Source: an uncultured archaeon
GTDB lineage: Archaea > Asgardarchaeota > Lokiarchaeia > Sigyniarchaeales > SOKP01
Length of the DNA: 64,000 nucleotides
NCBI GenBank assembly: GCA_964486045.1
Contig: CAZALK010000006.1
Coordinates: 128,001-192,000 of the forward strand
Reading direction: 5' to 3'
Shown here: piece after piece, positions 1,565 to 5,117 of the stretch
Numbering within the stretch: position 1 is the first letter of the stretch
Layout: each line of letters opens with the position of its first letter
The notes under the pieces: generated by a model
What the model was told of the DNA's origin: nothing
Databases searched by the model: none
Seen by the model: only the letters and a program-made list of their open reading frames with translations
Translations under genes and position numbers: made by a program

Positions 1565-4003
1565 CTACAGTCGATGTTCCGTTCGAGCGATGATACTGTC
1601 TTGGACTTGCTTATGCAGATCCACAAACCGGGCATTATATCCTGCCACCTTGACGACTAAATCTTTAAACTTTTCTGGATTTTTTTGAGCGGCTTTTAAA
1701 GTCTCAACAGAAACGACATTAATCTGAATATGATCGACTTTTTGATCTACAAAAGCCCTGATAAGGGCTGCTAACCTTTGGATTCCATTATCATTTTCAA
1801 AAACAATTGGATCTAGCTTCATATTCAATGATTGACCAAGTGAAAGTTCTGCGTTATTGATTTTTCCGACAGACTTGAGAACTGATGTGGGACCATTTAT
1901 ATCACTCCCCATTGTTGGAGAGACTCCGTCTGAAACAGGAGCTCCAGAATTTCTTCCTGAAGGTAGTGCCCCCACCATTAAACCGTGAGGTACATACGAT
2001 GACATTGGTACTTGATAGGCATATTTTGTTCCCCCATATGTTGTCTTGTATTTCATCGCTTCCTTTGCGACAAGGTGACTTACCCAGACAACCTGTTCAT
2101 CAGCATAATCATCATCATTGCCAAACTTAGGGGCTTCCAAGCACATTTTATGGATTTCTTCAAACCCTTCAAAATTACTTTCTAGTGCCTGACACAACTG
2201 ATCCATTGTAATCTTTTTTTCATCATACACCAGCTTTTTAATTGCAGCAAGAGAATTGCCCGCATCGACTGTTCCTAATGTAGTAACCGCACCGAGATTG
2301 TATCGCGCACCACCTTCTTCTCTACATTTGCCATTTTCAATGCAATCTTCGGTTAAGGCTGATGTGAAAATGGTTGGTTGAAGCATTTGCTCACCGAGGT
2401 TAGAGGCGACTGCACCTCTTTTCATCTCAAAAACAACTTGCTTACGAAATGCATCTCTTACCTCTTCAAATGATTTAAATTGTTTGGGATCACCTGTCTC
2501 TAATCCTCTTCTTTTACCGAAAATTCTACTCCAACCATTAGTCATCACGAGTTCCGTGGTAAGAGCCAGTAGCTGTGATTGGTTAACTGCCCATCCTCCT
2601 TCCATCGTATGCAAACTGGGTTCATGACAACCCACGCAACCTCCGAATTCCCGCGCCATCTCTAATGTAACCGGTCGTCCTCCAACGGTGGCTCCCCGTC
2701 CGAGAAGATTATTTACCAGAACATCATGATTGATATATTGGGGGTTTCCGCTCCCCACCGAAGTCAGTTGACATGCTTTTATTAGCAGATCATCCGGTGT
2801 TTTACTGTGGACTAAAAGACCGATAGCAGGTTCAACCATCCCAGGAGTATGCATTATTGCCTCGATGAACATGTAAGACAATTCGTTGGTGGCATCTGTT
2901 CCATCGGCTTTTAAACCACCAATATCAACATGATGACCAGGTGTATATTGCGAAATAAATCCTCCTTTCGTCCAAAGACCAAACGACTGAGAAAATCGCA
3001 TAAACCAACAATCAATCAACTCTTGGGCTTGTTCCTTTGTTATTCTTCCCTCTGTTATATCCTTTTCATAGAATGGGTATAAATATTGATCGGCTCTTCC
3101 TAGGCTTATTCCGCCGTGAAATGATAACTCCCATCCGAGCATCATATGAATGAACCAGACTGATTGTAGCGCTTGGTAGAATGAATTTGCTGGATTTGCT
3201 GGAACATTTTCACAGATATCACCAATTTTTAACAGTTCAGCTTTTCTCTTGCCATCCTCTTCCACTTCTGCTAGGGATTTTGCCTTGATCGCAAATCTTT
3301 TCCCGATCTCAGCAGCTGTTTCTAATGCTAGGATAACACCCTGAAGGAAGGGAGCCTTTTTAACCTCTTCCGAATCCGTTAGGTTTAATCTGTCCAATCT
3401 TTCCTCAGCATCTCGTTTTATCCCCAGAAGACCTTTTTTCAGAACTTTTGGGTAGTTAACAACATAATGGTCAACTTTCGGTGATGGAATCGCATATTTT
3501 ATTCCCAATTTCTTTGCCTCTGGAGGTATTGTTGGCATAAAATGATGTTCTTTCCAATAAGGATAGATCTCCTCCCTTAAAATTTTCTTATCTTCATCAT
3601 CAATAAGGAATGGATCGATCGTTCTAGTACTTAGAGAATCTAATTCCTTTTCCAGCCCAAATGCTGTATAAGGAATTGAATAAAAGGGGATTTCAGTACC
3701 CCGTGGCTCAGAAAATAACCACCCCACGAAAAGCTCATCAGGATAAATATTTATCGGTACTCCTTTAACAATTGCGCCAAATGATTTAGCCCGTCGAGTG
3801 ACCAATGGTTCTCCTTCAGTTTCCTTCCTACTTTGGGTTCGATTACGTGCAATATCGATAACTACCTTATTCCGAATGTTCAAATATCGCTGTCTTAGTA
3901 TTTCAACCCTTGGTGATGGTTTTATCGTAAAATGCCTGGCCCACATCGCTGTTGGATTAGCAATGGGTTCTTTAACAATTTGTTCCTTTATTATCTGGAC
4001 CAT
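1565..4003 (-). CDS. Glycyl-radical enzyme (PFL superfamily), substrate unknown
   Basis: SLGRADQYLYP, Cys loop GCVGCHEP, C-terminal Gly-radical motif LVVKVAGYNARF. Confidence 0.93.
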   Translation of the reverse strand: MVQIIKEQIVKEPIANPTAMWARHFTIKPSPRVEILRQRYLNIRNKVVIDIARNRTQSRKETEGEPLVTRRAKSFGAIVKGVPINIYPDELFVGWLFSEPRGTEIPFYSIPYTAFGLEKELDSLSTRTIDPFLIDDEDKKILREEIYPYWKEHHFMPTIPPEAKKLGIKYAIPSPKVDHYVVNYPKVLKKGLLGIKRDAEERLDRLNLTDSEEVKKAPFLQGVILALETAAEIGKRFAIKAKSLAEVEEDGKRKAELLKIGDICENVPANPANSFYQALQSVWFIHMMLGWELSFHGGISLGRADQYLYPFYEKDITEGRITKEQAQELIDCWFMRFSQSFGLWTKGGFISQYTPGHHVDIGGLKADGTDATNELSYMFIEAIMHTPGMVEPAIGLLVHSKTPDDLLIKACQLTSVGSGNPQYINHDVLVNNLLGRGATVGGRPVTLEMAREFGGCVGCHEPSLHTMEGGWAVNQSQLLALTTELVMTNGWSRIFGKRRGLETGDPKQFKSFEEVRDAFRKQVVFEMKRGAVASNLGEQMLQPTIFTSALTEDCIENGKCREEGGARYNLGAVTTLGTVDAGNSLAAIKKLVYDEKKITMDQLCQALESNFEGFEEIHKMCLEAPKFGNDDDYADEQVVWVSHLVAKEAMKYKTTYGGTKYAYQVPMSSYVPHGLMVGALPSGRNSGAPVSDGVSPTMGSDINGPTSVLKSVGKINNAELSLGQSLNMKLDPIVFENDNGIQRLAALIRAFVDQKVDHIQINVVSVETLKAAQKNPEKFKDLVVKVAGYNARFVDLHKQVQDSIIARTEHRL

Positions 4004-4282
4004 ATTCTTTCCTCATTGTGTAGATAGGATGATAGATTTAAATAAAATTAGGTAAATTTTTGATTCTTTAATAATAAAATTACATTACTTACTTAAATCT
4101 TTTTCATATGATTAAAGATTTCAAATGTGATTAAAGTCTCATTACAAACATTAGAATAATAAAATGAAAAAAGATTTTCCCTACGGAAGGTCCACCAATA
4201 ATATTATTCTTGTTGAGATCTTTAAATTTATAAATGTCTAATCCTACTAGGTGTTTGCTTTTATTAGGTGGGGCAAATTTTT

Positions 4283-4888
4283 ATGAGTACAATTCAAGAT
4301 TTTGTGAAGGAAGCAAGCGAGAAATTATCCAAAACGGGAAAGAAAACCGGTTTAATGGTAAGAATTGGAGAAAAAGAGTCATACATCGTTCCTATATTCG
4401 AAACATTCGTCGTGAACCACGCAATAATAAATTTTGAAATCACTGGAGAAATTATAGCAAAATATTTTAGGAGATTAGGACAACAAGAAAGTGGTGGAGG
4501 GAGTAGTGGTCCAAAAGTTTCCGATAGACTAATAAAATATAGGAATAGGTCGGTGTATGTTGCATTGGATCCAGATAAGGAATCAGCCCGTATTAAAAGA
4601 GAAAATGATTCCCCTGAGCCCAAGGAAACGCGGCAAAAACTGAAAGAATCACATTATATGGCAGCAGAATGTATTTTCAAACCAAGTTTAGTAGGGAAAG
4701 ACAGTGAAGCATTAGATGGAGCGATATTGAGTGTGTTAAGCCTGTGTGAAGTTAATTTTAGGCGCGGATTATGTAATAATATCGTGGTATATGGACCAGC
4801 AGTATTCCGTGGGCTAAGTGAGAGATTACAATTAGAAATTCAAAAGAAATTTCAAGGTAAAATAGAAGTTAACGTCTCTAGTCTTTAA
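4283..4888 (+). CDS. Truncated actin-related protein (subdomains 3/4 only)
   Basis: Collinear matches to actin: TGLMVRIGEKESYIVPIFETFVVNHAI, YVALDPDKE, ECIFKPSLVG, CEVNFRRGLCNNIVVYG, GLSERLQLEI. ATG 4283 follows SD-like AGGTGG; the ORF track starts at GTG 4268. Confidence 0.8.
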   Translation: MSTIQDFVKEASEKLSKTGKKTGLMVRIGEKESYIVPIFETFVVNHAIINFEITGEIIAKYFRRLGQQESGGGSSGPKVSDRLIKYRNRSVYVALDPDKESARIKRENDSPEPKETRQKLKESHYMAAECIFKPSLVGKDSEALDGAILSVLSLCEVNFRRGLCNNIVVYGPAVFRGLSERLQLEIQKKFQGKIEVNVSSL

Positions 4889-5117
4889 TTATTTTTTTCC
4901 CATACTCCAACAATTTTTTAGGATTACTCTTTTCTTTAAGGATATTCAAGATAAGATGTATATTCGTTCGAAATATTGCAAAGCATAATATATCAATGAC
5001 TTTAAATAAATTCTCGAAATCTACTTATCTAAGAAATAATTATAAAAAATTAATATACTCCTACAAAATACAGATTAGGTTTATTTTAATTGAAGAAAAG
5101 AATTTAGTAAGAAAAAA

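Follow-up and report, generated by a model that had tools for sequence, protein, structure and literature searches.

A half-actin of Lokiarchaeia, its most likely descent from Lokiactin and its possible role as a filament cap

What is a gene that encodes the middle of actin and leaves out the rest? The window, that is, the whole stretch of 64,000 nucleotides of Lokiarchaeial DNA that was analysed, contains such a reading frame. Inspection of the frame shows 201 codons on the forward strand, open without interruption from the ATG at 4283 to the TAA at 4888, in agreement with the original prediction. An in-frame GTG upstream, at 4268, would give a protein of 206 aa, but it was rejected as the start of the family, since homologs align on the 4283 start. 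The SD-like site claimed for the gene is indeed present (4266-4273), and further upstream is a box whose role as a promoter we assume from the archaeal consensus. A sigma-70 promoter scan of this DNA stayed at the chance level, the model being unsuited to archaea. The neighbours, a divergent glycyl-radical enzyme, its activase and folD, are unrelated to the half-actin. The features are as follows, in window coordinates.

4224-4235, + strand: BRE/TATA-like box of the archaeal type, AAATTTATAAAT (homolog consensus AAACTTATAAAT); the upstream DNA shared by most homologs begins there or slightly before
4266-4273, + strand: SD-like AGGTGGGG, 9 nt ahead of the ATG; homologs have a G-rich patch at the same place
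4283-4888, + strand: half-actin ORF, 201 aa, extended hinge helix and subdomains 3 and 4
4289-4333, + strand: N-terminal helix, residues 3-17, in which a new extension continues into the actin hinge helix (alignment and model); E10=Q137, A11=A138, L15=L142, S16=Y143
4361-4375, + strand: degenerate phosphate-2 loop, RIGEK for DIGDG (Lokiactin alignment)
4394-4420, + strand: W-loop equivalent, actin 165-173, near-invariant in the family, with E167, F169 and H173 retained
4478-4552, + strand: hypervariable segment 1, on the pointed face of subdomain 4 (about actin 193-216); pN/pS 0.77, indels
4589-4654, + strand: hypervariable segment 2, about actin 231-253, tip of subdomain 4; pN/pS 0.79; the derived subfamily has lost its PDG turn
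4676-4708, + strand: H-plug equivalent, actin 262-272, conserved; G268 kept, E270 replaced by an invariant D
4745-4765, + strand: CEVNFRR, actin 285-291, longitudinal-contact patch of subdomain 3
4790-4798, + strand: degenerate adenosine motif, Y-GP for SGGS (Lokiactin alignment)
4889-4945, + strand: 3' flank common to many homologs, of variable extent and with no fixed end

The frame had been read as a stand-alone half-actin made of subdomains 3 and 4 (about residues 135-330), and this reading holds. The match to Pfam PF00022 (Actin) has an E-value of 1.6e-19 and a score of 70.3 bits, the gathering cut-off being 27, and covers positions 137-362 of the 410-position profile; the sequence matches in PDB fall on actin 141-325, Arp1 139-325 and HC1 actin 168-356. 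Residues were mapped with the Lokiactin of the same genome as the reference, its numbering being that of actin plus 7 throughout the region. In this alignment residue 10 corresponds to Q137 of actin and residue 201 to P332 in the last strand of subdomain 3, and nothing outside this span (actin about 137-332) is aligned, as expected from the proposed lack of the phosphate-1 lobe and the C-terminus. Residues 1-9 are not actin-like in either the alignment or the model: where actin has a strand, the model prolongs the hinge into a single helix, 3-17.

The model itself, built on a 146-row alignment that included actin segments, has pLDDT 88.5 and is low only in two variable loops. It superimposes on actin with Z 20.9 (VIA) and rmsd 2.2 over 189 residues, Foldseek TMq being 0.83, a fold match that is not independent evidence, as the alignment contained actin rows. 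AlphaFold on a family-only alignment yielded pLDDT 39, and that model was left unused. The good model also matches, at Z 8.6, a fragment of the Hsp70 ATPase, lobe II (PDB 1xqs_D). Hsp70 belongs to the actin superfamily, and this equivalent lobe was crystallised in a complex with HspBP1 and without lobe I; that fragment is engineered, whereas the half-actin is a natural gene. By HMM, fold and descent the half-actin is a member of the actin superfamily. At that, it has one lobe and not the two-lobed fold around a nucleotide cleft that marks the ARPs, and it lacks the defining features both of polymerising actin and of two-lobed ARPs.

Nucleotide binding was originally predicted to be lost on account of two degenerate motifs, and both are seen in the alignment: RIGEK at phosphate-2, where Lokiactin has DIGDG, and Y-GP at the adenosine motif, where Lokiactin has SGGS, one residue being deleted. 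The phosphate-1 motif is absent, and of the ATP-contact positions H161 is changed to Y and E214 to N. These changes together strongly argue that ATP binding has been lost. Subdomain 2 with the D-loop is missing too. With the nucleotide motifs gone and no D-loop, the protein is very unlikely to polymerise, in line with its earlier description as a non-polymerising actin derivative.

Could the missing half be encoded elsewhere? The host genome (5.2 Mb, 99% complete, about 31% GC) has five longer actin homologues, including a Lokiactin-type protein of 381 aa, and several gelsolins. No remnant of the missing lobe had been noticed near the gene, and tblastn with the full Lokiactin against the whole genome revealed no separate gene for subdomains 1 and 2, the half-actin piece being the only one at the locus. 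A split actin pairing with a separate subdomain 1/2 half, or else an assembly artefact or a pseudogene fragment, is suggested by the fragment-like shape alone. But a separate N-terminal half is found neither in this 99%-complete genome nor beside any homolog, and a weak search detected no fused form among the longer homologs or the 50% representatives. A pseudogene or assembly fragment was rejected on the absence of stops, on purifying selection and on the mid-contig position of the gene in many independent assemblies. Hence both the split actin and the artefact are largely refuted, and we consider them very improbable.

Several other actin-like genes were seen in the course of this analysis. 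Extra near-Lokiactin paralogs, 82-88% identical, are frequent beside the main copy in genomes of this family, an example being G000 C24:48508-49665 (L002), with relatives L014, L053, L055, L153 and L154; in G022 and G120 the Lokiactin-like genes number up to three. At G000 C10:161527-163050 (L004) is the gene for an actin paralog of 508 aa, with a double zinc-ribbon-like (CxxC) insert near the C-terminus, and such forms of 500-560 aa recur across the order. The 345-aa protein from G000 C30:19450-20484 (L008) has a ParM/MreB-like actin fold and a weak Pfam Actin match. Of two fragments, one corresponds to an N-terminal part of actin (residues 13-70, 67% identical) in a 1667-aa open frame of G060 (C2:96226-96399, L147), close to another actin-like gene, and the other a C-terminal actin remnant full of stops (G173:C1:970478-970816, L135).

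The half-actin family consists of two subfamilies. The derived one, to which this gene belongs, falls into 70 clusters when the identity cut-off is 90%; their identity to the query is 59-88%, and they have the start and the end in common. Lengths are mostly 185-208 aa, a few members being partial. The members of the basal subfamily are 201-204 aa long, mostly keep the PDG turn, and are 44-52% identical to Lokiactin. Thus the existence of same-length orthologs, which the original prediction left to be checked, is established by about 70 relatives and the basal subfamily. The named homologs come from Lokiarchaeota or Promethearchaeota MAGs and from marine sediment metagenomes. Some are in GenBank (AKC94956.1, KKN43030.1 and KKN20073.1, the marine sediment metagenome being LCGC14) under generic labels, 'putative actin-related protein', as for AKC94956.1, or hypothetical. 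In a literature collection of incomplete coverage, no paper on a single-lobe actin family was found, nor any mention of accessions such as AKC94956.1, and an Atlas search with the half-actin returned generic actin clusters only. We regard the single-lobe family as real and conserved, and it is apparently undescribed.

In the full tree all half-actins form one clade (support 100/94), which is weakly joined (86/73) to a long-branch paralog. In a reduced tree, with the long-branch paralogs removed, the half-actins nest among the Lokiactins of the Loki order (100/99), which also give their best BLAST scores. The family is therefore most likely derived from Lokiactin, its closest sequence relative (PMC9834061). 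Unlike Lokiactin, the half-actin has no subdomains 1 and 2, C-terminus or phosphate-1, its phosphate-2 and adenosine motifs are degenerate, and it is a mobile accessory gene, Lokiactin being a conserved one across the Asgard lineages. In their patchy gain and loss, other divergent Asgard actin paralogues, such as the three non-Lokiactin homologues of L. ossiferum, are similar to the half-actin, and Asgard ARPs have been described as patchy (PMC9834061). However, the other Asgard paralogues seen here are 360-560 aa long and have both lobes, whereas the half-actin has a single one.

The gene is not evolving neutrally: the median pairwise dN/dS for 21 coding sequences, the pairs not being independent, is 0.31, which settles the selection check proposed for it. 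Within the protein the ratio is 0.21 in subdomain 3 versus 0.77-0.79, with indels, in the two segments of subdomain 4; since even these are below 1, positive selection on the variable loops was rejected. As the median of the neighbouring genes is 0.12, the constraint on the half-actin is real but looser than average. This looseness, together with a few broken or internally deleted copies (L097, P0063, P0119) and the rarity of the gene in GTDB genomes, would fit a passenger close to neutrality, one that arose by truncation of a duplicate, drifts from genome to genome and is only weakly kept, for its foldability or low toxicity. Such a passenger would not, however, be expected to show the constraint seen in subdomain 3, nor a start, a stop and a length kept across subfamilies only about 43% identical, nor conserved TATA-like and SD-like sites, nor more than 70 clusters, and we regard it as improbable.

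The distribution is patchy. Only two of 400 Asgard GTDB genomes carry a half-actin, this one and G022, the latter with the basal type, and these two are also the only carriers among 135 genomes of the family. Searches gave no match in viral contigs; nor were related loci matched in genome contigs, a set that perhaps does not cover the host's own and near genomes. The derived gene is found in about 20 different neighbourhoods of marine-sediment Lokiarchaeia, where it stands by itself behind a TATA-like box of its own. The DNA common to these sites extends from the box at 4224-4235 to about 0-60 bp beyond the stop, its ends not being fixed. By inspection, the sites have variable boundaries and no recurrent partner gene or shared mobility gene. 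An operon partner was rejected, as neighbours never recur across sites.

In several carriers the half-actin, by itself or accompanied by one or two further genes, is situated inside blocks collinear with half-actin-free blocks of this genome. Such empty sites in this genome correspond to L044 (Snf7-Vps4), L083 (C2 block) and L188 (C18 block), and the site of the basal half-actin, which has a GNAT on one side and an N6 methyltransferase on the other, is empty here as well. At L044 (5008-10541) a half-actin, a serpin and an FMN reductase are located between Snf7 and Vps4 of an ESCRT cluster, genes that are adjacent in G000. Measured against this genome, the half-actin has diverged less at synonymous sites than the median neighbour in 14 of 16 loci, some of the neighbours possibly being paralogs; at L083, for instance, pS is 0.38 for the half-actin and 0.70 for the median neighbour. 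The exceptions are L039 and L080, where the half-actin exceeds its neighbours. Codon bias is not an obvious cause of the low pS, since the half-actin has a GC3 of 0.28, close to the top of the genome range (median 0.24, 90th percentile 0.28). From the lower synonymous divergence we infer that the gene moves horizontally between Lokiarchaeia species. Both this movement and the patchiness go beyond the original prediction; that a cytoskeletal gene should pass horizontally from one Asgard species to another is notable.

The surface of the protein offers a hint at its function. In F-actin, subdomain 3 of the subunit on the pointed side (W-loop 165-172, D286, E270, H173) docks on the neighbouring subunits, at their subdomains 2 and 4 (bioRxiv 10.1101/309534), and the pointed face of subdomain 4 is formed by 193-201 and 228-252 (PMC9200798). 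The hypervariable segments of the half-actin coincide with the latter face. On the former, the protein keeps F166, E167, F169, H173, V287, R290 and R291, with the changes E270D, D286E and D288N; both subfamilies retain the filament-contact positions F169, H173, 270, 287, 290 and 291, to a somewhat greater degree than the remaining surface residues, and E167 is often K in the basal one. Conservation within the family is 0.96 for the barbed face versus 0.56 for the pointed face (Mann-Whitney p 8e-7).

The same polarity, with the barbed face conserved and the pointed face broken, is seen in Arp11/ACTR10 of dynactin, for which the same reasoning from the two faces led to the prediction of a pointed-end cap (PMC2174220). 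This pattern leads us to propose, tentatively and as quite possible though short of probable, that the half-actin, free of nucleotide, caps the pointed end of Lokiactin or blocks its monomers. A duplicate, most likely of Lokiactin, has lost subdomains 1 and 2 and become a protein of 190-208 aa, an extended hinge helix with subdomains 3 and 4, in which the ATP-contact residues are replaced. In the proposed scheme the product would fold as a nucleotide-free single lobe. The barbed face (W-loop, patch 283-291, H173 and the H-plug acid 270) would dock on subdomains 2/4 of Lokiactin, at the filament pointed end or on a monomer, and, given no D-loop and a decayed tip of subdomain 4, nothing could add on top. 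The half-actin would then close off pointed ends in the way of Arp11 in dynactin, and might also seed growth at barbed ends; capping would tune filament length or turnover in the carrier lineages. The presence of a full Lokiactin and gelsolins in the genome was counted in favour of the cap, whereas the absence of the gene from almost all Asgard genomes and the broken copies were counted against it.

The pattern could also reflect just a constrained subdomain 3 with floppy loops in subdomain 4, since the barbed face does not stand out significantly from the rest of the subdomain 3 surface: for hand-picked sets, the conservation comparison gives p 0.10, and the residues identical to Lokiactin are 10 of 21 versus 5 of 22 (Fisher p 0.12). 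Moreover, the pocket that takes the D-loop methionine is altered (Y143S, T148K, G168T) and the contacts of subdomain 1 (K113, 346-375) are absent, so that the affinity may be low.

The parallel with Arp11 has its limits. Arp11 is eukaryotic and keeps both lobes, only actin 38-57 being deleted, whereas the half-actin lacks a whole lobe. The half-actin is 18% identical to 5adx_J, Arp11 itself being outside the tree. Its most likely descent being from Lokiactin, it is not an Arp11 ortholog and arose independently, but the two may work alike. A more specific version, in which Lokiarchaeia have made half of an actin into a dedicated pointed-end capper or nucleation seed, a prokaryotic counterpart, in function, of Arp11 or of end capping in the style of Arp2/3, which is passed horizontally between species as a plug-in modifier of the cytoskeleton, is possible but rather doubtful.

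The original prediction suggested a capper or a decoy for actin regulators. Both would still be conjectural: the former is now narrowed to the pointed end, as a barbed-end capper needs the pointed face of subdomains 2/4, which is missing or decayed here, and is disfavoured. As to the latter, WH2 proteins and part of profilin use the cleft between subdomains 1 and 3 of actin, as does gelsolin domain 1 (PMC9433394). In the half-actin this cleft is gone (Y143S, T148K, no residues 346-375), which weakens a gelsolin/WH2 decoy; the gelsolins encoded in the genome were counted in favour of a decoy. Actin regulation in Asgards is described as mainly that by gelsolins and profilins (PMC13716822).

More broadly, a decoy or sponge would be an actin look-alike that titrates binders of subdomain 3, such as profilin or the actin-targeting proteins of viruses or competitors, and would be a patchy conflict-type gene. 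The patchy, horizontally moving distribution fits this, as does the conservation of a broad subdomain 3 surface beyond the polymer contacts. About half of the profilin footprint, which we take to be actin 166-173 and 284-291, is retained as well. On the other hand, R177, the target of ADP-ribosylation in actin, is changed to N, the viral contigs contain no match, the examined loci have no recurring defence-island context, and the variable loops show no sign of positive selection. We consider a decoy unlikely.

Finally, contact with actin may have been given up for a new function off the filament, as a small folded domain or a homo-oligomer, for example two lobes in a pseudo-two-fold arrangement or subdomain 3 binding another partner. 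Many surface positions fixed in the family differ from Lokiactin (177N, 315L, 322Q, 323G, 294C and the new N-terminal helix), and identity to Lokiactin, about 50% for basal members, is down to 33% at this locus. Against this, the six filament-contact positions listed above are retained in both subfamilies and no partner gene travels with the half-actin; this, too, seems to us rather unlikely.

A natural single-lobe actin, with a graded series from Lokiactin-like to derived forms, would show how a filament subunit can come to regulate the filament it once built, as is usually assumed of the eukaryotic Arps. The distribution is narrow and the function putative, and the protein is small and amenable to standard actin assays.

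One more feature of the window concerns the neighbouring genes. Two stretches of about 148 bp, 1101-1248 and 3982-4125, are 74% identical. The first spans the start and the upstream region of the glycyl-radical activase gene (190-1122, - strand), and the second is the corresponding part of the gene for the glycyl-radical enzyme (1565-4003, - strand). Both proteins start with MVQ, and the repeat is possibly a duplicated promoter or regulatory leader.
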